Positions 316-19,190 of a DNA stretch of 23,397 nucleotides are shown here, one piece after another. Position 1 is the first letter of the stretch. Each line of letters opens with the position of its first letter. This DNA is from a bacterium (GTDB taxonomy: Bacteria > Zhuqueibacterota > Zhuqueibacteria > Oceanimicrobiales > Oceanimicrobiaceae), in NCBI GenBank assembly GCA_046757025.1, contig JBHHXN010000077.1:1-23397 (forward strand), given 5' to 3'. A model generated the notes under the pieces. It ran no database searches and was not told the origin of the DNA. It saw only the letters and a list, made by a program, of their open reading frames with translations. A program made the translations under genes and the position numbers.

Positions 316-843
316 ATGAAAGTATGGAAAACCTTTGAACACAATATCATAACCCACAGCGCTGCGCATCACCTCATGACCATTGCCAGCTTACTCAACA
401 AAAATGGTTATGCCCGGGTGACGGACGTAGCCAAGAGTCTGGAAATCACCAGAGGCAGCGCTTCCATCACTTTGAAGGCACTCAAAGAAAAGGGCTACGT
501 GCAGGAAGATGAAAATAAATTCTTGAGATTATCTGACAAAGGAGCGTCGCTCTGCCATTCGATAAAATCCATGCGCATCATTCTCATCAAGTTCATGAAA
601 GACATCCTCAACGTGGACACGGAACAGGCTGAAATCGATGCCTGTAAAATCGAGCATCTGCTGAGCGCCGAAACCGGAGACAAACTGCTGAATTTTTTGA
701 AATTTTTGTTTTCCGAAGACAAACGCGTCAAAGCGTTCTTAAATGCTTACTGGTCAAATGAAAACGAATGCCAGGGACTGATCGAAGAGTGCCAGGTGTG
801 TGAATCCGAGTGTTTGCTGAATGAGAGCACTCACTCATCCTAA
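316..843 (+). CDS. DtxR/MntR-family metal-dependent transcriptional repressor with C-terminal 4-Cys tail
   Basis: wHTH ARVTDVAKSLEITRGSASITLKALKEKGYV; dimerisation motif AEIDACKIEHLLS; tail CQGLIEECQVCESEC. Confidence 0.9.
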   Translation: MKVWKTFEHNIITHSAAHHLMTIASLLNKNGYARVTDVAKSLEITRGSASITLKALKEKGYVQEDENKFLRLSDKGASLCHSIKSMRIILIKFMKDILNVDTEQAEIDACKIEHLLSAETGDKLLNFLKFLFSEDKRVKAFLNAYWSNENECQGLIEECQVCESECLLNESTHSS

Positions 844-858
844 AATTTGATGGACATT

Positions 859-990
859 AAAAAACGCGCTGCCGAGGCTCTGGTAAAGTATCGGGCAACG
901 CGTTTGAAAGCGCGAAAAAAGATGTAACATACTCAATCGGATGAGTATGTTTAATCGACTCTCATAACAGGAGTTGATGCATCCTTTTTC
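859..990 (-). ncRNA. candidate sRNA with own promoter and intrinsic terminator
   Basis: minus-strand TTGACT-17-TATCTT at 1025-997; perfect 10-bp hairpin 926-935/942-951; GC-rich stem 862-875/891-905 ending in U6 on the minus strand. Confidence 0.4.
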
Positions 991-1148
991 TTTTAAAAGA
1001 TAGACAATTTTAAATTGAAAGTCAAGCGGCTCCAACAGAATTTAACGCATGGGAAACCGAATTGGGTGTGGCAAAAACAAATTTGGTGATTTTAGTGACA
1101 TCCAAAAACACAGTAAATTTATCACCTATTTTATGGGGAGAAAGTATT

Positions 1149-1343
1149 ATGAGTGTCAACCAGATGGATTGCATCGCCTGTGGTCGTAACAGCGAGCAGG
1201 TGCCTTTGTTGAATTTACAATTCCGCGGTATGAAATTCTTTATATGTCCGCAGCATTTACCGGTTTTGATACACGACCCCTCTCAGTTGATCGGTAAATT
1301 GCCCGGCGCTGAAGATCTTTCACCGGCTGAACACCGCGACTGA
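1149..1343 (+). CDS. small (64 aa) putative metal-binding protein
   Basis: GGGGAG RBS at 1135-1140 before ATG 1149 (preferred to ORF-track start 1062); CIAC...CPQH motifs. Confidence 0.75.
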   Translation: MSVNQMDCIACGRNSEQVPLLNLQFRGMKFFICPQHLPVLIHDPSQLIGKLPGAEDLSPAEHRD

Positions 1344-1351
1344 ATAGATTC

Positions 1352-1508
1352 TTAACCTGAATTATTCATTCAAAAGAGAGTGAACGTGTTGGGTGTTCAG
1401 CCTTTAGGCTGCCAGAACACGCTGAAGCGTGAACACCGAACGGGCTCTTCAAAACTCAGTTTTTCGATTTTGAGCGTAAAATCCTGGTTTGTGAATAATC
1501 CAAGTTAA
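1352..1508. mobile_element. MITE-like element containing a REP-like doublet
   Basis: terminal IR TTAACCTGAATTATTCA / TGAATAATCCAAGTTAA (15/17); inverted pair GGTGTTCAGCCTTTAGGCTG (1392-1411) and CACGCTGAAGCGTGAACACC (1418-1437). Confidence 0.6.
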
Positions 1509-1547
1509 ATAAAAAATCACCTTTAACAAAAAAAGGAAGGTGTAAAG

Positions 1548-2849
1548 ATGAACAAATCTATTTTAATTTCTCTAATCCCCTTATTACTATGGCCCTTTGT
1601 TGATTTTGGCTTCGCACAACAATCAACTAAACAAGACACCCTCAAAGAATTGATGCGGCGCATGGAAATTCTAACCGAAGAAATTGAAAAAGTAAAATTG
1701 GGCGAAGTAGCTGAACCTGAGTATGAAAGTAAATATGGCATGGGGCCGGCAGCTTCACGGGTATATCATCTTTCCCGTCCAGGCGTTTCCATCGCTGGTT
1801 ACGGAGAAATCGTGTATAACAATTTTTCCGATGAAAGGGATAACAGCAGCGCTTCCGGGCTGACAAACCAGATCGATTTCCTGCGGCACATCACCTATTT
1901 TGGATTTCGATTTAACGACCGGCTGCTGTTCAATTCGGAAATCGAATTTGAGCACGCAAAAACCGCAGACGGGGCGCCCGGTGAAGTGGCCATCGAATTT
2001 GGTTACATCGAAGCCATGCTCCACCCTGCCGTTAATTTGCGGGCCGGTATGGTTTTAGTGCCGGTAGGCATCATCAACGAACTGCATGAACCACCGACTT
2101 TTCACGGTGCGCTGCGCCCGGAAACCACAAAACGAATCGTTCCGACTACCTGGCGCGCCAACGGCTTCGGTCTGGTTGGCGCCACCCAAAACGGTATCGG
2201 TTACAAGATTTACCTGGTGGAGAGTCTCAACGCTGCCAGGTTTTCTTCAAACGGTATCCGAAGCGGTCGCCAGAGCGGCGCCAAAGCCATTGCTGAAGAT
2301 CTGGCAGTTACTGGCCGATTGGAATTTACCGGCATCCCGGGCTTAAATCTTGGCGGGTCTTTCTTTGTGGGGAACACGGCGCAGGCTTTAACAGACAGCA
2401 GTGGCCGAGACTTCGATGCCCGCCTGGATCTCTTTGCTCTGCATTTCATCTTTGCCAGAAAAGGCTTTGAAATTCGCGGTCTGTTCGCACAATCAAAACT
2501 GAACGACGTTATTCAATTAAACAACGCTTTAGGCCTGGTTGGAAGCAACAGCATCGGCGAAAAACAGAACGGTTATTATGTCACCGTAGCGTATGATATC
2601 ATGCCGCTGATTTCCAAGGGAACTTCGAATTATCTGGCGCCATTTGTACAGTTTGAACAATTCGATACCCAAAAAGACATCCCAACGGGCTTTGCGAAAA
2701 ATCTGGCGCGCAAACGCAGCAATTTGACCCTGGGCTTGACTTTCAAACCGCATCCCAATGTGGCATTCAAGTTCGATTACATCAACCGCGACAGCGACGC
2801 TAACACCGCCATCGACCAATTTAACTTAGCGGTGAATTATTTATTTTAA
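1548..2849 (+). CDS. outer-membrane beta-barrel/porin-like protein
   Basis: signal peptide, short coiled coil, amphipathic beta strands, FNSEIEFEH and INELHEPPTF motifs, C-terminal YLF; RBS AGGAAGG. Confidence 0.75.
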   Translation: MNKSILISLIPLLLWPFVDFGFAQQSTKQDTLKELMRRMEILTEEIEKVKLGEVAEPEYESKYGMGPAASRVYHLSRPGVSIAGYGEIVYNNFSDERDNSSASGLTNQIDFLRHITYFGFRFNDRLLFNSEIEFEHAKTADGAPGEVAIEFGYIEAMLHPAVNLRAGMVLVPVGIINELHEPPTFHGALRPETTKRIVPTTWRANGFGLVGATQNGIGYKIYLVESLNAARFSSNGIRSGRQSGAKAIAEDLAVTGRLEFTGIPGLNLGGSFFVGNTAQALTDSSGRDFDARLDLFALHFIFARKGFEIRGLFAQSKLNDVIQLNNALGLVGSNSIGEKQNGYYVTVAYDIMPLISKGTSNYLAPFVQFEQFDTQKDIPTGFAKNLARKRSNLTLGLTFKPHPNVAFKFDYINRDSDANTAIDQFNLAVNYLF

Positions 2850-2856
2850 AAATGAA

Positions 2857-2965
2857 TTCGTGTCCATCCGTAACGAGCCTTTTTTTGTCATGCCCGCAAT
2901 CTTCAAATCAGGTAGGCAAGAGATTGCATACGGACTCGGGAATGACGATTACGGATGGACACGAA
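2857..2965. mobile_element. MITE family A, copy 1
   Basis: perfect 17-bp terminal IR TTCGTGTCCATCCGTAA / TTACGGATGGACACGAA; homologous in inverted orientation to 9279-9410. Confidence 0.75.
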
Positions 2966-2993
2966 AATCACTGAAAAATTCTCAGGTAAAAAA

Positions 2994-3545
2994 ATGCAGA
3001 AGTGTTTCAAAATAACTTTCATCATTTTAATAACTTTAATATATATTTCTTCCATTCATGGTCAATTGCTGAAAACCCAGAAGGAAGCGCTGCAGCAAGC
3101 TTTCCCGGAAAATGCCGAAGTGACTCGAAAAGTGCTTTTTCTGACTGACAAACAGGTAGAAAAGATCCAAAAATTAGCCCGGGTAAAAATAGAATCAAAA
3201 ATGCTAACCTATTATATTGGCAGCAAAAATGACACAATTATTGGTTATGCTTTTTTTGCAAGGGACATCGTGCGTACGAAATTAGCTGCCTTTCTGGTGG
3301 TAGTCAATCCCGACAGCTCTGTCAAGTATATCGACATTTTAGCGTTTCACGAGCCTTTTGATTATCTGCCAACCGCAAACTGGCTAAAACTGTTTGATAG
3401 CAAAAAGCTGAAATCCAGCCTCTGGCCAAATCGGGATATTCATGGTATCAGCGGCGCGACTTTAACGGTTCGAACCCTGACACTGGGCGTGAGAAAAATA
3501 TTAGCCGCATTTCAAATTGCTGTTACAAAGGAGGATCCAAAGTGA
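2994..3545 (+). CDS. exported FMN-binding domain protein (flavinylation target)
   Basis: N-terminal signal/TM; GISGATLT matches the [S/T]GA[S/T] flavinylation motif; AFHEPFDYLP; ORF-track ATG 2955 lies inside the MITE IR so 2994 preferred. Confidence 0.8.
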   Translation: MQKCFKITFIILITLIYISSIHGQLLKTQKEALQQAFPENAEVTRKVLFLTDKQVEKIQKLARVKIESKMLTYYIGSKNDTIIGYAFFARDIVRTKLAAFLVVVNPDSSVKYIDILAFHEPFDYLPTANWLKLFDSKKLKSSLWPNRDIHGISGATLTVRTLTLGVRKILAAFQIAVTKEDPK

Positions 3546-4084
3546 AATACCTGTTAAACGGAAGTTTTCAGAACCAGAATTTGATGAAACTGACGCTGAT
3601 ATTTACACTGATATTTCTGACAGGATTCGTGGCGACAAATTTCGCGCTCTATTTTTCCAAAATGAGCGTTACCGCCGAATCGGTGCGAAATTACTATTTG
3701 GGTTCGGAAGAAGCCTACACCATGCCGCGCACCTATCAATCCATGCTGGAAGTTACGCACTCGCATTTGCCGATGATGGCGCTGGTGGTTTTGCTTTTGA
3801 CGCATTTGCTGATCTTTGCCCCGTACAAACTCAACATCAAAGTCGCGATCATTATCAGCGGATTTTCACTGGCGCTGCTGAACGAATCCGCAGGCTGGCT
3901 CATTCGATTTGTGAGCCCGGAATTGGCCTGGCTAAAGGTCACGACCTTTTTGGGCCTGCAGGCGATTCTGGGATTTCTCATCGTGGCCCTGTCGGTTTTT
4001 TTAATTAAAGGTCGCGCTTTTACACCGTTTATGCCGTCGACTCATCTGAGACAAATGCCCGTAACGAAATCTGAAACTAAATAG
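3542..4084 (+). CDS. multi-pass membrane protein with His-rich helix, possibly heme b-binding
   Basis: GTG start overlaps upstream TGA, RBS GGAGG; about 4 hydrophobic segments; LEVTHSHLPMMALVVLLLTHLL. Confidence 0.75.
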   Translation: MKYLLNGSFQNQNLMKLTLIFTLIFLTGFVATNFALYFSKMSVTAESVRNYYLGSEEAYTMPRTYQSMLEVTHSHLPMMALVVLLLTHLLIFAPYKLNIKVAIIISGFSLALLNESAGWLIRFVSPELAWLKVTTFLGLQAILGFLIVALSVFLIKGRAFTPFMPSTHLRQMPVTKSETK

Positions 4085-4095
4085 CCGCAAATAAC

Positions 4096-6078
4096 ATGAA
4101 ACAAAAACTATTTTATCTTTTGATATTTTCGCCAATTTTGGTAACGATCTTTTTCCTCATTCAGTCCATTTCTCCGAATGAGATTGAGACACGCTCTGCT
4201 GAGCAGAAAAACACCAACCACCTCGAACCAGAACGATTGATATTTTTATTGCAGTACATCGCGGCGGATTATGATGGGGCCGTGAAAAACCGCGAAGTGA
4301 GCAACCCTTACGAATATCAGGAAATGTTGGAATTCATTGAAACTGTGATAAACGGTTATAAAGCTTACCAACAGATAAATGACCACCTGAGTCACCTGGC
4401 CAGTTTGCAAAAATTACAACGATCCATTGAAAAAAAAGCAGACTTCCTTCAGGTGCAGCGCCAGGCCAATGATCTGATAAAAGTTATTTCTGCCGAGTTG
4501 CAAGTGGTACCGTTTCCCCATAAAATGATCGATTTGAACGAAGGCAAAAAATTATATGCCAGTGCGTGTGCACCCTGCCACGGTTTGACCGGCGATGGCC
4601 GCGGCTTTGCAGCGGATAAGCAGAAGCCCAAACCGAACGATTTTCAAAATCCCGAATATATGAACACGCTCACGCCCTATCAGATTTTCAACGCGGTTAC
4701 GTTTGGAGTCACGGGCACCAGCATGCCTTCGTACGAGATTGCCTGTACCGATGCTCAGCGGTGGAATTTGGCTTTTCATGTCATGACCTTACGGGCTGAT
4801 TTCAATCCGGCTCAACAAATACGGAACCCCAAATTGACGGTGAAGGATCTGGCGACTCAATCAAATGCGGATTTGGTAGATCAGCTCTCTCTACAGGTTG
4901 GGGATCTACAAAATGCGTATCAGCTCGTAGATTATTTACGCCTCCATCCACCGCAATTGAGTGTGCAAGAACATCTGCAATTCACACAGCAGCGATTAAG
5001 TAAAAGCTTGGCCGCATTCAAGAAGGGCGAAACTGAACAAGCTGTGCGTTTGACTTTGGCAGCCTACCTCGAGGGGATCGAGCCGGTGGAACCCATGCTG
5101 GATCCGGCGTTTATCAGCCAGCTCGAAACCCAATTAGGCAGCTATCGCCACGCCCTTAAAACCCACGAGTCCGTTTATCAAATCGAAAAACGTTTTCAAG
5201 CGGTGAGCAATTTGTTGAACAATACGCCGGCGGCTGGGCGGTCATCAAGGCTGCAATGGGGATTCACGCTCATTCAGTCGTTGACAATTGTTCTCCGAGA
5301 AGGCGTGGAAGCGGCCCTGATCATCGCGCTGATTTTAACGTATCTCACCGCGCTGAATTTTACGCATTTGCGAAAATACGTTTTGGCTGGCGCGATTGCA
5401 GGTGTGGCCGCAGGATTAATCACCTGGTTTCTATCCAAACTATTTCTTAAAATTTCCCCGCTACAGCAGGGAGCACTGGAAGGTTTGACTTCTCTGTTAG
5501 CCGCGCTGGTGTTATTTTCCATCAGTTTCTGGCTGATTCATAAAGTGGACCTGGAGCGGTGGAAAAAATATATCAAGGTAAAAGCGGAACGAGCCCTGGT
5601 AAGCGGCAGCGGTTTTGCGCTGTCCCTGGTGGCGTTTGTGGCAGTTTACCGAGAGGCGTTTGAAACCGTGCTGTTTTATCAAGCACTGTGGCAAAAAAGT
5701 CTGGTGGTACAATCCGGCCTATTCCTTGGCTTTGCCGTGGGAGTGCTTTTGTTAACCCTGATCATTTTCTTGATCTTTAAAATTGGCTATAAAATTCCCC
5801 TCAAACCTTTTTTCGGCGTCAGCGGCGTTTTGCTGGCTATTTTAGCATTTGTTTTTACGGGTTACGGTGTGCGGGAATTACAGCAAATTGGTTTTCTGAA
5901 TGAAACGCTTCTGCCCTGGAATTTCAATTTGGATTTACTGGAAATCCATGCTACTATGGAAGGCATTTTACTGCAAATGGGCCTATTAATTTCTTTTATG
6001 ATGGGATGGTTTTCAATTTACGTGCAAAAAATCCGCTTAGCCAACCAGGTCAAACTCGATATGGCCCCGGCAAAATGA
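4096..6078 (+). CDS. cytochrome c / FTR1-family iron permease fusion (PbrT-like architecture)
   Basis: CAPCH heme c motif (4567-4581), GTSMP distal Met, two RExxE motifs (REGVE, REAFE), multi-TM C-terminal half. Confidence 0.9.
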   Translation: MKQKLFYLLIFSPILVTIFFLIQSISPNEIETRSAEQKNTNHLEPERLIFLLQYIAADYDGAVKNREVSNPYEYQEMLEFIETVINGYKAYQQINDHLSHLASLQKLQRSIEKKADFLQVQRQANDLIKVISAELQVVPFPHKMIDLNEGKKLYASACAPCHGLTGDGRGFAADKQKPKPNDFQNPEYMNTLTPYQIFNAVTFGVTGTSMPSYEIACTDAQRWNLAFHVMTLRADFNPAQQIRNPKLTVKDLATQSNADLVDQLSLQVGDLQNAYQLVDYLRLHPPQLSVQEHLQFTQQRLSKSLAAFKKGETEQAVRLTLAAYLEGIEPVEPMLDPAFISQLETQLGSYRHALKTHESVYQIEKRFQAVSNLLNNTPAAGRSSRLQWGFTLIQSLTIVLREGVEAALIIALILTYLTALNFTHLRKYVLAGAIAGVAAGLITWFLSKLFLKISPLQQGALEGLTSLLAALVLFSISFWLIHKVDLERWKKYIKVKAERALVSGSGFALSLVAFVAVYREAFETVLFYQALWQKSLVVQSGLFLGFAVGVLLLTLIIFLIFKIGYKIPLKPFFGVSGVLLAILAFVFTGYGVRELQQIGFLNETLLPWNFNLDLLEIHATMEGILLQMGLLISFMMGWFSIYVQKIRLANQVKLDMAPAK

Positions 6079-6141: not shown

Positions 6142-8112
6142 TCAGACGTTTGAAATATCGTATTCTTTCATTTTGCGCCACAGAGTGGTTCGGCCAATGC
6201 CCAGTACTTTTGCCACCAGGTCGTAGTTCCAGTTGTGTACCTCCAGAGCCTCGGCGATATGAATTTTTTCCAGCTCTTTGAGTGTCAAAGTCTGTGATCG
6301 ATTGCGACTCAACGCCACAGCACGGCTGTTAACCACAGTGGGCGGCAGGTCTTCTCTGGTTAAGATTTTTTGAGTGGAAAGCGCCATGGCACGTTCGATG
6401 ACATTTTCCAGCTCCCGCACGTTGCCAGGCCAGGGGTATTTGCGCAGAAGCCGGGCAGCGTCGTCGTTCAATCCGTACACGGCTTTGTTGACTTTACTGG
6501 CATATTTCTTGATGAAAAACTCTGCCAGTGGAAGGATGTCTTCTGGCCGATCTTTTAGCGGTGGAATGGTAATCTGGATGACATTTAAACGATAATACAA
6601 GTCCTGTCGAAACGTGCCCTCTTCCACCATTTTTTCGAGATTTTTATTGGTAGCCGTGATGAGCCGTACATCCAGTTTGATTATCTGGTTGCTGCCAACC
6701 GGTTTAATTTCACCTTCCTGCAAAAAACGCAGCAATTTGACCTGCATGGCCAGGGAGGTTTCCCCGATCTCATCCAAAAAAATAGTGCCGTGATTGGCGG
6801 TTTCGAACAACCCTTTTTTGTTAGCAGTCGCCCCGGTAAAGGCTCCGCGCACGTGTCCGAACAGCTCGCTCTCTAACAAATTTTCGGGCATGGCGCCGCA
6901 GTTAACCACGATGAACGGATTGTCTGCACGAGTGCTGTGCTCATGAATGGCACACGCGACCATTTCTTTGCCGGTACCGCTCTCGCCATCGATGAGAACC
7001 GAAATATTGGTTTGAGCGATGCGGGCCACCAGCTCCAGAATTTTTTGCATGGATTCGCTTTTGCCGATAATATTTCCAAACCGATAGCGCTCATTGGACT
7101 GCACCCAGGAAATGAAATTCTGAATTTCCCGCTCCAGCAATTTGTCCACCACATCCGTGACTTTTTGATGCGCCTGCAAATTGGAATCAACGATTTTTTC
7201 CAGATCGCTTTTTTTGTAATAGTACATGTTGTAGATATTCAGACCGTTGCGTTTTTTGGTCTGTTCAGACAAAATTTCATCATAATACGAAACGTACAAA
7301 AACGGCGCATTTTTTCGCAGGTTCATCACTTTGACGATTTGCTCGTTATGGAAAACATTCTCGAAGTTTTCATCGAACAACAGCAACAGATCCACTTTCG
7401 GCATCACTTCATCCAGCCGGGAAACGGTGACTTTGGTTCCCCGGTACTGTTCACACAGTCGGTTGCCGCCGGTTTGGTCGAGATCCACAAAAATCAGCTC
7501 GCCAATATTTCTTTCATGCAATTTCTGAATAAATTTTTCACAGTCGGAATTGCGAGCCGCTATCAAGGCTTTGTTGTCCTGCAAATCGCCAAATATTTTC
7601 TGGGCTAAATCGGTGACCACCGTTTCTGGAGTGATGGCGTTTTTTTGCAGATTTAATTCGATTCTGACTTTTTCAGAAAGCCAAAGCCCCCGCTGATGCA
7701 GACGGCTAAAGTAGGCGCCGGTTGAACAAGCCTCCCGTGCTTCGGTTAATGCAGAATGGAATTCCGGTCCACGGTTATTGAATTCTCCTTTGCGGTTCAT
7801 GCCGATGGCTAATCTATAAAATTCTAAAATGGCGTCCGGCCCTTCCATTTTAAATTTCAGTTTTGCAATCGTGTCCTGACTAACATGCAGGTCCTTCTGC
7901 ACGAAATCGTAAAATGCCTTTTCCAGCGCGTCTCTCTTCTCTGTCACCGCAAAAACTTGTATCAAGCCCTCAGCTTGATACATGACAATTTCATCAAATA
8001 GTTTTATTGCAGAAATTTGATCGACAAATCTGGATGGCAAAGATGGCTTCTCGAGCACAACCTTTGGTTGATCTTTTTCTCTTAACTCGATTCCAAATGT
8101 AAAAATAGGCAT
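6142..8112 (-). CDS. sigma54-dependent enhancer-binding protein with N-terminal degenerate glutamyl-tRNA reductase (HemA)-like domain
   Basis: C-terminal: GESGTGKE, ESELFGH, GAFTGA, FLDEIGE, RQDLYYRL, WPGNVREL, Fis HTH. N-terminal ~336 aa collinear with HemA (LAQKIFGDL, RKNAPFL, DLEKIVDSNL...FISW) but lacking STCNR and GAGE. Confidence 0.85.
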   Translation of the reverse strand: MPIFTFGIELREKDQPKVVLEKPSLPSRFVDQISAIKLFDEIVMYQAEGLIQVFAVTEKRDALEKAFYDFVQKDLHVSQDTIAKLKFKMEGPDAILEFYRLAIGMNRKGEFNNRGPEFHSALTEAREACSTGAYFSRLHQRGLWLSEKVRIELNLQKNAITPETVVTDLAQKIFGDLQDNKALIAARNSDCEKFIQKLHERNIGELIFVDLDQTGGNRLCEQYRGTKVTVSRLDEVMPKVDLLLLFDENFENVFHNEQIVKVMNLRKNAPFLYVSYYDEILSEQTKKRNGLNIYNMYYYKKSDLEKIVDSNLQAHQKVTDVVDKLLEREIQNFISWVQSNERYRFGNIIGKSESMQKILELVARIAQTNISVLIDGESGTGKEMVACAIHEHSTRADNPFIVVNCGAMPENLLESELFGHVRGAFTGATANKKGLFETANHGTIFLDEIGETSLAMQVKLLRFLQEGEIKPVGSNQIIKLDVRLITATNKNLEKMVEEGTFRQDLYYRLNVIQITIPPLKDRPEDILPLAEFFIKKYASKVNKAVYGLNDDAARLLRKYPWPGNVRELENVIERAMALSTQKILTREDLPPTVVNSRAVALSRNRSQTLTLKELEKIHIAEALEVHNWNYDLVAKVLGIGRTTLWRKMKEYDISNV

Positions 8113-8118
8113 AACAGC

Positions 8119-8943
8119 TTACTGAAAATTATGAAATTTGGAAAAAAACAAATTGACGATGATGAACGAAAAAAGCAGCCAGTTAAAACCCACCACCGAT
8201 ATGACAGCCGCGCGACGCCCCTGCCACCCGATGGATTTGCGCGTGACAAAATGGGCCACGTAAATGGCCCAGGAAAAAATGACCGCAATCAATTTGGGAT
8301 CCCACGCCCAACTACCCTCCCAAACATTGATGCCCATGTAAAAACCCACTAAAATTCCCAGTGTCACCAGAACCAGCCCAATATTGACCGCGTGATTGCT
8401 GAGTTTGTCGATGAAATCGAGGGATGGCAGACGTTCAAAGAAAATGCCCAAATCCTTTGATTTCATCTCCCGCGCCAACAAAATGTACATGACGCTGGCA
8501 ATGAAAGAAATCGCAAATGCAGCGTACGCGGAAATTAAAACCACCACGTGCAGCTCGAACACAACATTGGTCAGCACATCGGCCAACGGCTTATCAATGT
8601 CGATAAAACCGCTGGAAATCGCATGTAAAATCAAAACAATCGGAATAAAGAAAACGCCCATTGTGCTCTCTTTTAAGCTGACTTCCAACGTCAAGTACAC
8701 CAGCACCGACAGCCAGGAGAAGGTCGTCAAAACCTGATATAAATCACCCACCGGTAAATGACCAAGCCGCAGACTGAGTAAAAGCAAATACAAAGAATGG
8801 AATAACACGGCGCTGCCCAGCCAAATTCGGATTTGTGACACCGACTGCTGTTCCTTTGCTGTGAAATACCGCAAGTAATAACCAAAACTCACCGCGTATA
8901 AAACAAAAATCAACCATCTAAGAAAAAACATGAGTTCTTTCAC
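8119..8943 (-). CDS. CcsA/HemX-like cytochrome c assembly family membrane protein
   Basis: about 8 TM helices, WWD-type motif WEGSWAWDPK, His residues (FELH, KFHNF), LPSLDFIDKL; position directly upstream of a hemA-like gene is the usual ccsA/hemX-hemA linkage. Confidence 0.85.
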   Translation of the reverse strand: MKELMFFLRWLIFVLYAVSFGYYLRYFTAKEQQSVSQIRIWLGSAVLFHSLYLLLLSLRLGHLPVGDLYQVLTTFSWLSVLVYLTLEVSLKESTMGVFFIPIVLILHAISSGFIDIDKPLADVLTNVVFELHVVVLISAYAAFAISFIASVMYILLAREMKSKDLGIFFERLPSLDFIDKLSNHAVNIGLVLVTLGILVGFYMGINVWEGSWAWDPKLIAVIFSWAIYVAHFVTRKSIGWQGRRAAVISVVGFNWLLFSFIIVNLFFSKFHNFQ

Positions 8944-8988: not shown

Positions 8989-9030
8989 TTTTCAATTTGA
9001 AAATTTAACACTTTCAATATTGAAAATCAA
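8989..9030 (-). promoter_or_regulatory. sigma70-type promoter for the ccsA-like gene overlapped by two palindromes
   Basis: minus-strand TTGATT (9030-9025)-17-TAAATT (9007-9002); TTTTCAA-T-TTGAAAA (8989-9003) and TTTCAATATTGAAA (9012-9025). Confidence 0.55.
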
Positions 9031-9278
9031 GGGGGAAAACGCGAAAGTAATAATAACAAGCGGGAACGGTATTAAGACAAATGGGCTCGATAGCATTCCC
9101 TCTGAGCCTGGGTATTTTTATGCAAATTATCCCTTAAACCTTATGAACAACTCAAAACACAAAGTGAAAAATGCAAATTTCAAAGTTGATAGTTTTTCTC
9201 AGCCTCACCGTTCCAGGCAGGGATTCCACCCTAGGCCAGGAGGCTTTCGGGAAGACAGGGTCGTTTTCGTTCAAACAC

Positions 9279-9410
9279 TAATTAGCGTCCATCCGTAATC
9301 GTCATTCCCGAGTGCTGTTATCGGGAATCTCGTACCTAATTGACCAATGGATTCCCGCTTAAGGATGCAGGAATGACAAAAAAAAGCTCTTTACGGATGG
9401 ACACTAATTA
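9279..9410. mobile_element. MITE family A, copy 2
   Basis: terminal IR TAATTAGCGTCCATCCGTAA / TTACGGATGGACACTAATTA (19/20); internal GTCATTCCCG..CGGGAATC and GATTCCCGC..GGAATGAC palindromes. Confidence 0.8.
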
Positions 9411-9428: not shown

Positions 9429-11030
9429 TCAAATAGCTGCCGGCGCGCCAACTTCTTGATCGGATAATTTCTCGTTTTGGGATGATTGTTTATCGTCTTT
9501 CTTAGCCGACTCAGATTTCAGGTACGCATTGGGATCATGATAAAGGGCTCCCGGCGGTAGCCATTCCCACAAAGGTCCCAGATCCCGCTTGATCCATTCA
9601 TAATAAAATTCCGGCAACTCCGTGGTTTCTCTTTCGAAAAACGCTCGCACCTGTTTATCTTCATCCATTTTTCGACGGATGAGACTATATCGCTTAATTC
9701 GCCCAAAGCCTTCAGACGAGACGGCACGAATGACGTTCATCCAGCGAGGAATGGATTCGCGAACCGCAAAAAAGCGTCGAGAAATTGCTCGCCAGGAAAA
9801 AGTATATTTGCTTAAATCGATGACATGATCGTAAAACTCCGGCCAGGAATAATTCTTCGGCTTCACATTCATGGCATGATTGTTATTCAAAAAATGAAAT
9901 GGAAACGGCAGAACGCGATTCTCTCTCTGGTATTGGAGATTCAGCGGAGCCGCCTGACCAAACGCAGACAGCAAAGAGTAGCCGTTGAACACCCCCGGCG
10001 ACAGATCGACAAAACGCTTGGTGAGCTCAAACGGTTCCGGGCCTTCGTCTCCATCCAGACCGAGGACAAAATTCGCCTGTACGTAAGGAATATAATCCAT
10101 GATCATATTCACGTGGTCTGAAACGTGGCGCACTTTATCCAGTCCTTTGTTTTTGCCGCTTTTGGATTTGTTGCCCAGATCGTACCACGACTCGATTCCC
10201 GGCAGCAGCGCTTTAAAACCGTTTTTTTGCAATCGTTTCAAACGGTCTTCCGAAAGCAGCGACAGACTGCTCTCTGCAATAAAATCGATGCTGTTTGGCG
10301 GCACCGCCGCCTCGATGGCATCCAATTGATCGTCAAAACGCACGCCAAAATTCGGATCATGCCAGGCTACATGCGGTCGCTTGAATTTCTTCAACAGAAA
10401 CCGTAAGTCTTCTTTTAAAATTTCCGCATCCAAGGACTGATAAGGAATTTCCGAGTCGATACAAAAGCTGCAAGTATAAGGGCAGCCGATACTACTGATC
10501 ATGGGGACGATTTTGATCAAGGGCGCTTTTTGCAGAGTGAGCTCCACGAATTTCCATCGTTCTGCAATCCCGGGCAAAGTACTGGGTTGTTGCTGAACCG
10601 ACAGATGCAACCCCGTGGGACGGTGGGGCGCCCAATCGTGTAGAACGTCCTGAATGATGGACTTATTTGTGAAGCCCAGAACGTAATCAAAATATTTCTG
10701 AGCATCCTGCGGATAACAGCGAGCATGCGGCCCACCTAAAACAGTCACCGCTCCTTTTGATCTTAAAAAATTGCTCAACGCATAAGCCAGTTGTGCGGCT
10801 TGCGTAAACGCCCCGATGAAGGCGATATCGTACTTTTCGGAAAGTTCTTCGTTGAGCTTTTCACAACCGGTGTAGCAAACAAAATCGACTTCGTGCCCTG
10901 CCTCCTCACACCACAACGCCACCACCTGCGGCATGATGCTCACCAAATTCGCATGCATGATGCGCGCGTAGATTGATCGATTAAATCCTTTTGTAATGAG
11001 ATCTAAAACCGCTATCCGAAGTTTCCTCAT
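9429..11030 (-). CDS. radical SAM protein with N-terminal B12-binding-like domain
   Basis: CPYTCSFC (CxxxCxxC), VTVLGGPHA, GIES, NFVLGLDGD; RBS AGGAGGG. Confidence 0.85.
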   Translation of the reverse strand: MRKLRIAVLDLITKGFNRSIYARIMHANLVSIMPQVVALWCEEAGHEVDFVCYTGCEKLNEELSEKYDIAFIGAFTQAAQLAYALSNFLRSKGAVTVLGGPHARCYPQDAQKYFDYVLGFTNKSIIQDVLHDWAPHRPTGLHLSVQQQPSTLPGIAERWKFVELTLQKAPLIKIVPMISSIGCPYTCSFCIDSEIPYQSLDAEILKEDLRFLLKKFKRPHVAWHDPNFGVRFDDQLDAIEAAVPPNSIDFIAESSLSLLSEDRLKRLQKNGFKALLPGIESWYDLGNKSKSGKNKGLDKVRHVSDHVNMIMDYIPYVQANFVLGLDGDEGPEPFELTKRFVDLSPGVFNGYSLLSAFGQAAPLNLQYQRENRVLPFPFHFLNNNHAMNVKPKNYSWPEFYDHVIDLSKYTFSWRAISRRFFAVRESIPRWMNVIRAVSSEGFGRIKRYSLIRRKMDEDKQVRAFFERETTELPEFYYEWIKRDLGPLWEWLPPGALYHDPNAYLKSESAKKDDKQSSQNEKLSDQEVGAPAAI

Positions 11031-11981: not shown

Positions 11982-14201
11982 GTGAAAATCTTTTCCAACA
12001 TTAAAGGCGATATTATGGGGGGCATAACGACATCGGTGATAGCGCTGCCCCTGGCCATCGCCTTTGGTGTTGTGGCTTTCGCCCCTCTGGGCGAGGAGTA
12101 CATTGCCCAGGGTGCCCTGACCGGACTCTATGGCGTCATCGTGGCGGGGATTCTAACCAGCCTTTTCGGCGGCACGCCTGGACAAATTGCGGTGCCCACT
12201 GCGCCCATGTCGGTAATGGTCACCTCGATTATTGCCACGCTTTTGAAGGACCCGCAAATAGCCGCTATGAGGGATAATCAGGTAATGGTAATTCTGGTTT
12301 TGGTTTCCATGACGATCTTCATGGCGGGAGTGTTACAGCTCATCATGGGCGCGGTAGGCGGCGGTAAATTAGTCAAATTTATCCCTTACCCGGTTATCGC
12401 CGGCTTTATGAACGGCATCGCCATTATCATTTTTCTCGGGCAACTGCGGCCGTTGTTTGGCGTGGCGAAAGACACCAAATTGACTGCTCTTTTCCTGGGA
12501 CAGGCTGGCATTCGATATGAAACCCTCATTGTCGGAATGGTAACCATTCTCGCCATGATGTTCTCCAGGCGAATCATTAAAGCCATACCCGCCTCATTAG
12601 TCGGTCTGTTGTGCGGTGTGGCAGCTTACTTTTTCATCGGAAAAATATTCAATCCGACCCTTTTGCAAATGCAAGATAATCCGCTGATCATTGGCCACAT
12701 ACCAAGCGTCCTTCCGACGCCGAAGCAGGTGGTAAATTTCCTCAGTATCAGTGGCAGCATTCCTTTAAACAAATTGAGCAATTTAATTATCCCCGCGTTG
12801 ACTTTGAGTATTTTAGCGTCTATCGATACCTTGTTGACCTCTGTGGTGACCGACATGGTCACCAAATCCAAGCACAACAGCACGAAAGAACTGTTTGGTC
12901 AGGGCATCGGCAACATGGCTTCTGCCGCGTTCGGAGGCCTGCCGGTCGCCGGCTCCACGCTGGCCACCATGGTCAACGTCAACGCCGGCTCCCGCACTCC
13001 GCTGGGCGGCATTGTCAACAGCCTGACCGTCCTGTGCATCGTCCTGTTCATGGGCAGCCTGGTACAGTGGATTCCCATGGCCGTGCTCGCCGGAATTTTG
13101 CTGCTCACATCCATTTCCATGATCGAGTCTGAAAGCATCAACCTGTCGCTAAAAAAATCCGCTCTGGGAAATTTGTTAGTCATCGTGGCAGTTACCGTAA
13201 TAACCGTTGCCATCGATTTGATCATCGCGGTCATGATCGGATTGATCATCACGACTTTTTTGTTCATCAAAGAGCAGATCGGCAAATCCATCGTGCGCCG
13301 AATGTACACCGGCAATCTCGTGCACTCCAAAAAGATTCGAAGCCAGGAGGCGATGAATATTCTGGAACAAAAAGGCGACTTGATCAAAATCTATGAGCTC
13401 AACGGCTCGTTGTTTTTTGGCACCTGCGATAAACTGCTGGCTGAATTAGAAAAGGAGCTGGACAGTTTCAGCATCATTCTCGATTTCAAACGCGTGCACA
13501 CCATCGATTTGACCGGTGCGCAGCTTCTAAAACAAATCGTCGAAAGGGTAAAGGAAAAGGGCAACCATTTGCTCATCAGTTACCTGGACATGCCAGGCAA
13601 TGAAGACAAAGAGCGCATGGTGCGTCTCATGCGGGACGTCAGCGTCATCGAGGCCATCGGAACAGAATTCATTTTTCCCGACACCGACCAGGCGCAGGAA
13701 TGGGCAGAAGATGCGCTCATTCAAAGAGAGCTGGATGCCGCCAACATCCCCAAAGAAAGATTGACCGTAAAAAGCCTGAATGTATTCAAAGAATTGACTC
13801 GTGAACAATTGAAAATTGTCAAGAAACACATGCACCCCATGAAATATAAAAAGTCGGAGCTGGTTTTTAAAGAAGGCGATCCGGGCGATAAAATTTATTT
13901 CATTCTCTCAGGCGGAGTCAGTGTGCTGGCAAATATATCTGAGAACGGTCGCGCCCGCCGGCTGGCAACCTTCGGTGAGGGAGTGTTTTTTGGCGACATG
14001 GCGATTTTGGAAGAGCAGCCGCGTTCAGCATCAGTCCGGGCTGACTGCGATACCGAGCTTCTGTACATGACCGTCGATGATTTTCGCCATCTCGTTACCC
14101 ACGAGTCTTTGTTGGCTTCAAAAATGCTCCTGGGCATGGCCAGAGAATTGTCGTATCGCTTGCGCCTGACGACTATCGAAGTGCGGACGCTGGAAGAATA
14201 A
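11982..14201 (+). CDS. SulP/SLC26 anion transporter with STAS and cyclic-nucleotide-binding domains
   Basis: GDIMGGITTSVIALPLAIAFG, PYPVIAGFMNG, KELFGQGIGN; STAS NGSLFFG/IDLTG; cNMP FGDMAILEEQPRSASV; RBS GAGGAG. Confidence 0.92.
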   Translation: MKIFSNIKGDIMGGITTSVIALPLAIAFGVVAFAPLGEEYIAQGALTGLYGVIVAGILTSLFGGTPGQIAVPTAPMSVMVTSIIATLLKDPQIAAMRDNQVMVILVLVSMTIFMAGVLQLIMGAVGGGKLVKFIPYPVIAGFMNGIAIIIFLGQLRPLFGVAKDTKLTALFLGQAGIRYETLIVGMVTILAMMFSRRIIKAIPASLVGLLCGVAAYFFIGKIFNPTLLQMQDNPLIIGHIPSVLPTPKQVVNFLSISGSIPLNKLSNLIIPALTLSILASIDTLLTSVVTDMVTKSKHNSTKELFGQGIGNMASAAFGGLPVAGSTLATMVNVNAGSRTPLGGIVNSLTVLCIVLFMGSLVQWIPMAVLAGILLLTSISMIESESINLSLKKSALGNLLVIVAVTVITVAIDLIIAVMIGLIITTFLFIKEQIGKSIVRRMYTGNLVHSKKIRSQEAMNILEQKGDLIKIYELNGSLFFGTCDKLLAELEKELDSFSIILDFKRVHTIDLTGAQLLKQIVERVKEKGNHLLISYLDMPGNEDKERMVRLMRDVSVIEAIGTEFIFPDTDQAQEWAEDALIQRELDAANIPKERLTVKSLNVFKELTREQLKIVKKHMHPMKYKKSELVFKEGDPGDKIYFILSGGVSVLANISENGRARRLATFGEGVFFGDMAILEEQPRSASVRADCDTELLYMTVDDFRHLVTHESLLASKMLLGMARELSYRLRLTTIEVRTLEE

Positions 14202-14887: not shown

Positions 14888-15433
14888 TTGGATGACATTC
14901 TAAAAATTCTACTTGAAATTGTTTCAAAATTAGATACAATCCAGATACCATATTATGTCAGCGGCTCCATGGCAAGAAATCTGTACGCTGAACCGAGATT
15001 CACCAACGACATCGATATTGTAATTGAATTGCATCCAACACAAAGAGAAAAAATAGTAACCCTTTTTAAACAAGATTTTTATATCTCGGAGCAGCAAATG
15101 CAGGATGCCTTTGATAAAATAGGATTTTTTAACATAATTCATTTTGAAAAAAGCATCAAATGCGATTTTATTTTATGCAAATCTGATTCTTTCTCCAAAC
15201 AATGCTTTCAAAATCGAACCAAATCAATCATAGAAAACAAGGAAGTTTATTTCATTTCGAAAGAAGATTTGATTCTTCAAAAACTTCTCTGGCGCAAGGA
15301 AACTCTCTCAGAACAACAGCTAATGGATGTAAAAAGCGTCATTGAAAATCACCGCGAGGAATTAGATACTGAATATTTACTGGGATGGAGTCAAAACCTT
15401 AAAATTGAAAAGGACCTAAAAGATCTGTTATGA
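14888..15433 (+). CDS. nucleotidyltransferase-fold protein (DUF6036-like)
   Basis: YYVSGSMARNLYAEPRFTNDIDIVI (GS..DxD), EDLILQKL, QQLMDV, LDTEYLLGW; TTG start. Confidence 0.8.
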   Translation: MDDILKILLEIVSKLDTIQIPYYVSGSMARNLYAEPRFTNDIDIVIELHPTQREKIVTLFKQDFYISEQQMQDAFDKIGFFNIIHFEKSIKCDFILCKSDSFSKQCFQNRTKSIIENKEVYFISKEDLILQKLLWRKETLSEQQLMDVKSVIENHREELDTEYLLGWSQNLKIEKDLKDLL

Positions 15434-15699
15434 GCGATACAACTCCCGAAATTCGGGAAATGCTGGTTAAAAGATTTCGAGCCATGTCGGCCGAAGAGAA
15501 AATGAAAAAGACCAGCAACATGTTTGCCACCGCAAAAAAATTTGCTGAAATTGCGGTCAAGAGAAAAAATCCATCCCTGACGGGCGTCGATCTAAAAATG
15601 GCTATTTTTCGGTGGATTTATCAGAAAGAGTTAAGTACAGCAGAACTGGACAGGATTGAAAAGCGCATGCGGGAATTTTGCCAAAGCCACTTAAAATAG
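15430..15699 (+). CDS. small basic helical protein, partner of the nucleotidyltransferase
   Basis: ATGA overlap with upstream stop; MSDTTPE...RAMSAEEK N-terminus typical of partners of this nucleotidyltransferase group. Confidence 0.75.
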   Translation: MSDTTPEIREMLVKRFRAMSAEEKMKKTSNMFATAKKFAEIAVKRKNPSLTGVDLKMAIFRWIYQKELSTAELDRIEKRMREFCQSHLK

Positions 15700-16299: not shown

Positions 16300-17475
16300 T
16301 CAAATTAACTCTAACTGTTTACCCACTTTTTCAAATACGCCCACCGCAAAATCCAGATCATCTTTTGAATGCGTGGCAGAATTCATGATGCGGATGCGGT
16401 CTTTGCCTTTGGCCACGGTGGGAAAACTGATGGCCATGCCAAAGATACCGTTTTCGAATAGCGCTTTGCTGAAATCCTGTGCCATTTTGGCGTCGCCAAT
16501 CATCACCGGGGTGATGGGCGTGGTGCTCAGGCCGAGATCGAATCCCAATTCTTCTAGCTGCGATTTGAAGTATCGGGTGTTGTTCCACAACTGTTCCACC
16601 AAGTCGCCGGATTGGGTGAGAATATCCACGGCCTTGATGCAGGCAGCGACATCGGCGGGCGTAACCGCGCTGGAAAAAAGAAATGGCCGGGCGCGCTGGC
16701 GCAGGTAATCCACGATTTTCTTTTTGCCGGCGACGTAGCCGCCCACCACGCCAAAGGCTTTGGACAGGGTTCCCACTTCGATGTCCACTTTGCCGTGCAA
16801 GCCAAAATGGTCGGAGATACCGCGGCCGGCGTTGCCCAGTACTCCCTCGCCATGGGCATCGTCCACCATCACCATGGCGCCGAATTTCTCAGCGACTTCC
16901 ACGATATCCGGCACCGGCGCGATATCGCCATCCATGCTGAACACGCCGTCGGTAATGACCAATTTGCGTCGGGCCGCGACTTCGCTTTTTAAGTATTCCT
17001 CCAGAGAGGCCGCATCGCAGTGCTTGTAGCGCACCACTTTGGCTTTGGTCAGCCGGCAGCCATCGATGATGCTGGCATGATTGAGCTCATCCGAAAAGAT
17101 GATGTCCTCCGGCCCCATCAAGGTTGGGATAGTCGCCAGATTTGCGTTGAAACCTGATTGAAATGAAATGGCCGCTTCCACGTCTTTAAATTTAGCTAAC
17201 TTTTCCTCCAGTTCGTTGTGCAAAGTCATGGTGCCGGCGATAGTGCGAACAGCGGCCGGCCCCACGCCATACTTTTCAATGGCTTCCTGAGCGGCTTTTT
17301 TTAATTCGGGATGGTCCGCAAATCCCAGATAGTTATTCGCGCACATGTTCAGTACTTTGTGGCCATCCACTTCGATCCAGGCGCCTTGTGCAGTGTCAAT
17401 GGTACGAATGTTGATGAATAATCCCTGTTCCTGGAGATTTTTAATTTCAGAATCTAAGAAACTCAAATCAGCCAT
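16300..17475 (-). CDS. kbl: glycine C-acetyltransferase (2-amino-3-ketobutyrate CoA ligase)
   Basis: [42 protein letters not shown] lysine; adjacent to tdh. Confidence 0.88.
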
Positions 17476-17721
17476 ATTGAATCCTCCGCTATGTAAGGAA
17501 TATTTTAATTTCGCTGTTAATAACTCATGTTTCGCACTTAGATAATTTAAACAAAAACAAATAAGTTCAAGCTGATGAATTCGTATTTAAGTAATTAATA
17601 TTATAGATATTACATTAATATTCCAAAACCAGAGTAATTGAGTTGTTATTTGATAATCCTGCGGTCTGTAACAAAGACCCTTTCTACTAGTAAATCGAAA
17701 AGTCGATTTAAAAAGACTTTT

Positions 17722-17776
17722 TAAATAAATGGCTGCATTCTAACATTTTGGAATTCTTGTAACTTTAGTAATGATA
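17722..17776 (+). repeat. dispersed repeat also present at window positions 1-55
   Basis: 44/55 ungapped identity with 1-55. Confidence 0.65.
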
Positions 17777-17850
17777 ACGAATTATGTGAATTCAGGTTAA
17801 GAATAAAATATTAGAAACAATTGATTACATAACTGTGAAACTTGAGTTAA

Positions 17851-18053
17851 TAATTAGTGTCTGACCGAAAATGGTCATTCTGAGGGAGCCCGCAACCAAA
17901 GAAACTTTCCCAGCAGAGTCTATTTGTTCAGAGAAAGAACCCTATGCACGAATTCATCACTTATGCATTTTAGCAAATCAGGTTGCATGAGATTCTTCGT
18001 CGCTGCGCTCCTCAGAATGACAAAATAGGGAGTTTTCGGTCAATCAATAATTA
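17851..18053. mobile_element. MITE family B, long copy
   Basis: terminal IR TAATTAGTGTCTGACCGAAAA / TTTTCGGTCAATCAATAATTA (18/21); internal perfect IR GTCATTCTGAGG (17874-17885) / CCTCAGAATGAC (18010-18021). Confidence 0.75.
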
Positions 18054-18146
18054 AATCTGGAAAGTTTACATGAAATTTTCACTGCAAATTTACAGGCCAC
18101 CTCCGTCAGTTGAATAATAAAATTATCACTCATGAACCCGGTTTAT

Positions 18147-19190
18147 TTATTCAATCGCCCAGTCCAAAATAACCTTCCCAGAGTTCCCGGACCGCATCAC
18201 CTCAAACGCCAGCTCGTATTCTGTAAAATGGAATTTGTGTGTAATCACAGGCGAGATGTCGAGGCCGGTCTGAATCATGGACTGCATAAGATACCAGGTT
18301 TCGTACATTTCGCGGCCGTAGATGCCTTTGATGGTCAGCATATTAAAAATCACCGTGTTCCAATCGATCACCAAATCGCCGCTGGGAATGCCCAGCATGG
18401 CGATTTTGCCGCCGTGGCACATGTTGGCGATCATATCCTTGAACGCGGCCTCGCTGCCCGACATCTCTAACCCAACATCAAAGCCCTCTTTCATTCCGAG
18501 CTCTTTTTGAACCTGCTGCAGACTTTTCTCCCGCACATCCAACGCCATCGTGGCGCCCATTTTTTGGGCGAGCTGCAGCCGGTAGGGATTCAAATCGGTG
18601 GTGACGATGTAACGGGCGCCGGCGTGCCGCGCAATGGCCGTTGCCATCAAACCAATTGGGCCGGCGCCGGTGATCAGCACGTCTTCTCCCAGAACTTTGA
18701 AAGTGAGGGTGGTGTGAGTGGCGTTGCCAAACGGATCGAAAATACTCAGCAAATCCATGGGGATGGAAGGGTCCGCGCGCCAGATGTTGGCGACGGGGAT
18801 GCACAGATACTCGGCAAACGCGCCGGGCCGGTTCACGCCGATGCCCTGCGTGGCGTTACAGAGATGGCGACGGCCAGCCAGACAATTCCGGCATTTGCCA
18901 CAAACGATGTGCCCCTCGCCAGCCACCACGTCCCCAACCTGTAGGTCATGCACATTGCTGCCCATAGCGGCCACTTTCCCCACGAATTCATGTCCCACGG
19001 TCATGGGCACCGGAATGGTGGCTTGCGCCCAGGCGTCCCAATTCCAGATGTGCACATCGGTCCCGCAAACGGAAGTCTTACACACTTGAATCAACACGTC
19101 GTCCATCCCCATTTCAGGAATCGGCACATCCTGCATCCAAAGCCCCGGCCGGTCATGAGCTTTCACCAGCGCTTTCATGGTTTTCTTCAT
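18147..19190 (-). CDS. tdh: L-threonine 3-dehydrogenase
   Basis: [63 protein letters not shown]. Confidence 0.95.

Follow-up and report, generated by a model that had tools for sequence, protein, structure and literature searches.

The closest described relatives of the system reported here are the HemX–GtrR pairs of Bacillus subtilis and Staphylococcus aureus, in which a PF01578 membrane protein is encoded beside a hemA-type gene, is tied to heme synthesis and exerts post-transcriptional control over an active enzyme (PMC5801465, PMC10991733). It has been reported that HemX adjoins gtrR in 106 of 113 genomes and that its effect in heme-proficient S. aureus is a lower level of GtrR; in heme-deficient cells GtrR falls on loss of HemX, which is needed for the full GtrR rise, so the sign of control may be less simple, and in the accessible part of that study neither direct HemX–GtrR contact nor heme binding by HemX is shown (PMC5801465). 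The mechanism is called unresolved in the corresponding parts of this 2018 study and of a 2024 review (PMC5801465, PMC10991733). Sigma54 activators such as NtrC1, PrpR, AtoC, DmpR, PspF and NifA are built from an AAA+ core with a GAFTGA motif and a Fis-type helix-turn-helix (HTH) and use tandem upstream sites, and control in trans by a partner protein has been reported for PspA–PspF and NifL–NifA. Enzyme scaffolds are reused as regulatory inputs in GabR/MocR, PyrR, the ROK repressors and DhaR–DhaK/L. Enzyme folds as regulator inputs and partner control of sigma54 activators are therefore of a known kind, and we know of no enzyme-fold regulator that involves HemA, a membrane heme-handling partner or a regulon of heme genes such as that predicted below.

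The window analysed here is the whole stretch of 23,397 nucleotides of contig JBHHXN010000077.1 (assembly GCA_046757025.1), and the features of interest within it are collected in Table 1.

Table 1. Coordinates within the window of the fusion gene, its domains, the partner gene and the predicted DNA sites.
Feature	Position	Strand	Description
Pseudo-HemA/sigma54 activator fusion gene (P0001)	6142..8112	-	656 aa, one open frame
Input domain, residues 1–340	7093..8112	-	GluTR catalytic-domain fold + Rossmann fold + long spinal helix
AAA+ sigma54-activation domain, residues 348–598	6319..7071	-	Walker A/B, GAFTGA
Fis-type HTH, residues 610–651	6160..6285	-	HTH_8; recognition helix GRTTLWRK
HemX-like (PF01578) membrane protein	8119..8943	-	274 aa; stops 6 bases ahead of fusion start
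Palindromic site TTTTCA-N3-TGAAAA	8989..9003	.	21.7 bits; roughly 50 bases ahead of hemX; adjoining sigma54-like promoter absent
Second, weaker copy of palindromic site	9012..9026	.	16.0 bits

The original prediction described a single uninterrupted frame that joins an inactive HemA to a sigma54 activator, and this is borne out, the strand, which it left unstated, being minus. The activator part, which it placed at residues ~345–656 and regarded as complete, is indeed intact: PF00158 matches residues 348–514 (E 2.1e-74), followed by the AAA lid at 520–598 and HTH_8 (Pfam), while Walker A (GESGTGKE, 376–383), GAFTGA (423–428) and the DE of Walker B (447–448) are recognizable by eye. Together with the Arg finger, which is likewise present, these are the elements by which a sigma54 enhancer-binding protein is identified; among the best 25 of 33 NCBIfam matches, no activator family reached its own cut-off. 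Residues 1–336 had been aligned with HemA by eye, and the profile agrees, with residues 16–340 matching positions 12–336 of 416 in TIGR01035 (hemA) at E 4.9e-21, although the score of this N-terminal part lies far below the curated cut-off of 209.55 bits. The single fusion protein matches 1GPJ with E 3.3e-4, and a profile of 38 fusion members searched against the PDB gave 1GPJ (E 6e-37) and 4N7R (E 7e-23) as its sole matches, both solved glutamyl-tRNA reductases (GluTRs), so that sequence and structure matches to GluTR span both N-terminal domains. The structural comparison proposed together with the HMM search points the same way: the AlphaFold model of the whole fusion (mean pLDDT 78.8, pTM 0.60) aligns with 1GPJ over 336 residues (Z 20.6, rmsd 9.1) and with 4N7R over 321 residues (Z 17.3, rmsd 16.7), the high rmsd values indicating that the domains are arranged differently or that their arrangement is uncertain. 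Helix 301–339 of this model leads straight into the AAA+ domain, at the point that the dimerisation domain occupies in HemA. Since the Pfam matches listed include no GlutR dimerisation domain and the HemA match stops at profile position 336, with AAA+ beginning at residue 348, the AAA+ domain takes the place of the dimerisation domain, as had been claimed. The genome also carries the two separate genes whose presence had been put forward as a check, rpoN (C61, TIGR02395 above cut-off) and an intact hemA (C156), the latter as the first gene of a full hem operon.

Compared with HemA/GtrR (TIGR01035; 1GPJ, 4N7R), the input domain has the same fold and the same succession of parts (catalytic domain, then NADPH domain, then spinal helix), but it lacks the catalytic Cys, GxGxxG, DIAVPRD and the dimerisation domain and is joined to AAA+/HTH. 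In the alignment, the catalytic Cys is present in 0 of 38 fusion members versus 87 of 87 true HemAs, and the second Gly of GxG in 4/38 versus 86/87; TCNR, GExQI, GxG, NR and DIAVPRD are all scrambled in the family relative to the 87 true HemAs. In P0001 itself, the NADPH-binding GxGxxG/A and the NR motif are absent and read ARNSDC (186–191) and DLD. Of the motif losses originally listed, those of DIAVPRD and the catalytic Cys stand, as does ARNS at the GxGxxS position; the STCNR site reads QAEGL (46–50), one residue off the YQAEG given earlier, with the Cys absent either way, and the replacement of GEPQI by GEFNN falls where the alignment register is ambiguous and HMMER keeps GE on GE. A residual HemA enzyme is ruled out because the catalytic Cys is gone and the substrate and NADPH motifs are scrambled. 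The positions retained by the family are mostly structural (E41, G104, KIFG 172–175, R266, F333 and W336), and a family-specific W144 occurs in 32/38 members. In 32 of 38 members, EKVR stands where HemA has the basic KRVR motif, a change of K to E which would argue against tRNA-Glu as the ligand, and no Cys or His column of the dead domain is conserved above 15/38, leaving nothing for direct heme ligation by this domain to rest on. Two other HemA relatives depart from the usual form: a second hemA in genome G007 (C58:28382-29578, L101) has one internal TAG within its match, and in P0082, a relative of 491 aa, STTNR replaces STCNR.

Of the 24 matches returned by a protein search, 23 are of the fusion type and 1 is an ordinary HemA. 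Within the phylum, homologues of the same architecture, which the original prediction suggested seeking, were counted by hand in about 64 of 167 genomes; 43 of these were checked on fetched DNA and the others by frame length and score. Two further genomes (G069 and G073) hold a strongly diverged fusion with the same HTH in both; that of G073 (L084:6484-8418), whose input domain is beyond HMM search, is matched with an hhalign probability of 97.7% and sits between hemX and sirC-hemA. A search of the genome contigs with the single fusion protein gave 1 locus, none was found in viral contigs, and spread beyond the phylum is weakly tested. The relatives carry the labels KSB1, Calditrichota, Caldithrix and, in one case, Bacteroidota, while the databases label the fusion proteins as glutamyl-tRNA reductase or as a generic activator, the former of which can make hemA-less genomes seem able to begin heme synthesis. 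Among genomes with an intact hemA, 41/49 have the fusion; conversely, 23 of the 64 fusion genomes have no hemA above the cut-off, several of them being 97–100% complete. No HemA-fold input with a HemX partner was found in the freely accessible literature that was searched. As for KSB1, one paper notes hem genes, with neither 'sigma' nor 'glutamyl' in the available portion of its text (PMC9012183), and the available portion of another yielded nothing on the fusion system (PMC6299221).

The family is under purifying selection, with input-domain dN/dS values, a measure that had been proposed at the outset, of 0.12–0.28 in 9 pairs above 55% identity. In a quick, midpoint-rooted tree that omits 20 of 45 outside HemAs, a branch with SH-aLRT 100 separates the 38 input domains from 67 true HemAs, a topology with which one origin of the fusion family would be compatible. 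The junction near 7090, at which a misjoin had been considered, is spanned within one contig in 3 of 4 runs (X1, X2 and X4, all from one study, of which X1 may be the source). An assembly artefact or a decaying pseudogene is ruled out by the homologue family, the dN/dS values and the junction-bridging contigs. Comparison of sequences supports the reading of a dead GluTR scaffold as the input domain of a sigma54 activator, which would set the fusion apart from NtrC1, PrpR, AtoC, DmpR, PspF and NifA. The earlier idea of a repurposed enzyme scaffold holds in so far as this domain is conserved and selected, and of the three ligands then offered (heme, tRNA-Glu or a partner protein) the partner is favoured by way of a HemX-like gene that had gone unmentioned. 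It may be that hemA was duplicated once and that one copy lost catalysis, exchanged its dimerisation domain for AAA+/HTH and took HemX as its partner.

The protein encoded ahead of the fusion matches PF01578 with E 1.8e-31 and is recognized as HemX-like because it is a PF01578 membrane protein adjoining a hemA-type gene; three other PF01578 genes are present in the genome. In 42/43 loci, a count that omits L002 and duplicate loci, hemX is immediately upstream of the fusion, the lone miss being truncated by a contig end, and it stays there even in the fusion genomes without hemA above the cut-off. The intact hemA is preceded by hemX in 0 of 17 fusion genomes viewed, whereas G075, G084 and G085, which are without the fusion, show the classic hemX-hemA-hemC order, and hemX therefore appears to have gone with the dead copy. 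This differs from B. subtilis and S. aureus in that hemX adjoins a dead copy carried on a transcription activator while the active hemA is without hemX. With CcsA/CcsBA (7S9Y), the HemX-like protein has in common the fold family and both periplasmic histidines, since His132 and His271, invariant in 38/38 sequences, align with H761 and H897 of CcsBA, reported as the histidines of the periplasmic heme site (PMC11322641). It is unlike them in its degenerate WWD motif, in having no CcsB/ResB gene adjoining at the loci viewed and no in-register counterpart of the transmembrane His858 (TM-His1) in the alignment, and in its extra conserved loop. A CcsA cytochrome c synthase is ruled out by the first three of these differences, and a true ccsB-ccsA pair in L104 offers a contrast to the hemX locus. 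The extra loop, residues 150–182, is highly conserved and for this reason is a candidate docking site, the candidate interface being formed by this loop with the LYQRGLWLAEKVR helix or the KIFG patch of the fusion. HemX probably binds heme via His132/His271 and contacts the dead domain by this conserved cytoplasmic loop.

A TTTCA-N3-TGAAA palindrome, mostly paired at a distance of 20–21 bases, precedes the hem operon in 26/30 hemA loci, and a sigma54-like TGGCA-type motif is found at promoter distance in 22/30. When the matrices were trained without the source genome, 3 tandem matches above 20 bits were obtained in its 5.96 Mb, two of them with a promoter, namely hemA (C156) and an operon of a lipoprotein and a TonB receptor (C120); among NCBIfam families this receptor scores highest with TonB-hemin, reaching 190 bits where the cut-off is 316.85. 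The same operon lies behind a tandem site in G149, G155, G166 and G009, which have the fusion and no intact hemA, and also in G163; in G139, another fusion genome of this kind, the tandem site leads to a different TonB receptor, and in 5/10 fusion-only genomes, scanned at one spacing, no tandem site with promoter leading to any receptor was found. Among 9 further hem operons of fusion genomes, 8 have a tandem score above 30 and that of G144 has one strong half, and the target operons include siroheme-route genes (sirC, ahb-type). Ahead of hemX, one strong site lacking a promoter is found in 18/19 loci of the two nearest families sampled versus 0/25 others, and this site is likely to serve a predicted autoregulation restricted to this branch. 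Hem genes lie in the fetched region around the fusion in 9/19 genomes, several of which were picked because both matches shared a contig, and in G051 and G055 the hem operon and the fusion are separated by 5–10 kb; C156 and the left end of the window show no overlap, both ends matching repeats.

The tandem motif occurs in 47/66 fusion genomes versus 27/101 genomes without a detected fusion. Of 18 sites fetched from the latter, 2 adjoin receiver-type TTLWRK activators with other targets, 1 belongs to the lipoprotein/receptor operon in a genome 75% complete, and most have no clear link; as the motif also accompanies activators of the receiver type that carry this TTLWRK helix, it goes with the type of helix and not with the fusion. 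In G076, where no fusion was found, a tandem site precedes sirC-hemA, together with an orphan hemX and a receiver-type TTLWRK activator, while G067 and G142 have hemA and neither fusion nor site. The motif could be that of a different activator whose helix is similar, and the targets of the fusion could lie elsewhere, a reading to which the 27/101 genomes, the G076 site and a TTLYRK activator on C54 lend some weight. It is nevertheless very unlikely, given that the fusion is the only one of 46 activators of the genome with the TTLWRK helix, that the hemX site is confined to the nearest families, that in G009 a perfect tandem site follows the fusion gene itself, and that the three classic hemX-hemA operons (G075, G084 and G085) have no site or promoter (pair score <0, promoter score about 2). 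It is likely that the HTH of the fusion binds the tandem TTTCA-N3-TGAAA, 100–220 bases upstream of the sigma54 promoters of the hem and lipoprotein/TonB-receptor operons, as well as the autoregulatory site of hemX.

The -12 element of these promoters is TTGT or TTGA in most loci and the canonical TTGC in some (G144, G145, G146 and G009). Many sigma54-like sites across the genome likewise read TGGCA-N6-TTG(T/A) and not TTGC, for example at C156:985, and TTG(T/A) may be a form of the -12 element particular to this lineage. Of 46 sigma54-like matches, 5 lie near activator genes, against 6.3% of the genome, and enrichment there is not shown. The lipoprotein (C120:14413-15003, minus strand, and L113:3414-4004) belongs to no Pfam or NCBIfam family and is Pro/Trp-rich; it always stands ahead of the TonB receptor, is doubled in G166 and is a candidate heme-binding partner. 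In L142 and L152 (G120 and G107), receiver-type TTLWRK activators are accompanied by a tandem site and a sigma54-like promoter before genes labelled by eye as pilin-like.

It appears moderately likely that heme-loaded HemX holds the activator in check by way of the dead HemA domain, forming a heme-feedback switch. Under such a switch, shortage of heme would lift the restraint, which might take the form of membrane tethering or destabilisation, and the spinal helix would let the AAA+ ring assemble; the assembled activator, placed on the tandem sites, would then open the sigma54 promoters from which genes for synthesis and uptake are transcribed. With the same parts and targets, HemX could instead act positively or read another signal, such as siroheme, a porphyrin precursor, periplasmic heme or redox. 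The match of its conserved histidines to the periplasm-facing CcsBA site, the receptor target kept in fusion-only genomes and the siroheme-route operons among the targets are all consistent with this, as is the part played by HemX in the full GtrR rise of heme-deficient S. aureus (PMC5801465). A site common to synthesis and uptake would fit a response to shortage better, however, and a positive or differently tuned HemX is regarded as unlikely; the same holds for the example in which loaded HemX turns the activator on and induces uptake when outside heme is present.

Binding of the signal (heme, NADP(H), glutamyl-tRNA or a pathway intermediate) by the dead HemA domain, with a co-transcribed HemX acting on the genuine HemA or on the movement of heme, would explain why the whole two-domain fold is retained, and some true GtrRs have been reported to bind heme (PMC5801465, PMC10991733). 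Against the low conservation of Cys and His columns, the scrambled substrate and NADPH residues, the K to E change in KRVR and the persistence of hemX beside the fusion in genomes without hemA above the cut-off, direct sensing by the domain seems quite improbable. It is extremely improbable that the activator gauges the amount of real HemA through pairing, with HemX doing no more than set the HemA level, since the dimerisation domain is missing and more than a third of the fusion genomes (23/64) have no hemA above the cut-off, although the frequency of the fusion among intact-hemA genomes would agree with such counting. Returning to restraint by heme-loaded HemX, we tentatively propose that this lineage may have rewired the post-translational control of HemA by HemX into a one-step transcriptional sensor of heme, in which a HemX that binds heme in the membrane would dock the decoy HemA of a sigma54 activator and rule both synthesis and an undescribed heme-uptake system, the lipoprotein with the TonB receptor. 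If this is true, the rewired pair would be direct evidence for HemX binding the HemA fold and would provide a reporter read-out of HemX action: with the HemA fold as a transcription switch, HemX control of HemA becomes testable by a promoter reporter, and the residues retained in HemX and the fusion point to the contact surface. The fusion would also add a new input domain of sigma54 activators, a new route of heme feedback and a candidate heme-uptake operon.

Several other genes and elements of the window were observed. An iron-related cluster (316-6078, plus strand) is convergent on the fusion and comprises a DtxR-type repressor, a small CxxC protein, a 433-aa porin-like protein without Pfam match, an FMN-binding protein, a 180-aa membrane protein and a cytochrome c-FTR1 fusion, of which the last four genes lie between hemA and the fusion in G055. 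Upstream of hemX is a B12-binding radical SAM protein (9429-11030, minus strand), similarly placed in G051, and a SulP-STAS-cNMP transporter (11982-14201, plus strand) is near the hemX-fusion pair also in G051, G055 and G066. A short repeated element at 9246-9283 is matched by other contigs in 4/4 runs. A nucleotidyltransferase-like gene with a small overlapping partner (14888-15699, plus strand) has a toxin-antitoxin-like layout, the matches being weak. An aminotransferase class II gene and a zinc dehydrogenase gene occupy 16300-19190 on the minus strand, and these presumably resemble kbl and tdh of threonine breakdown.
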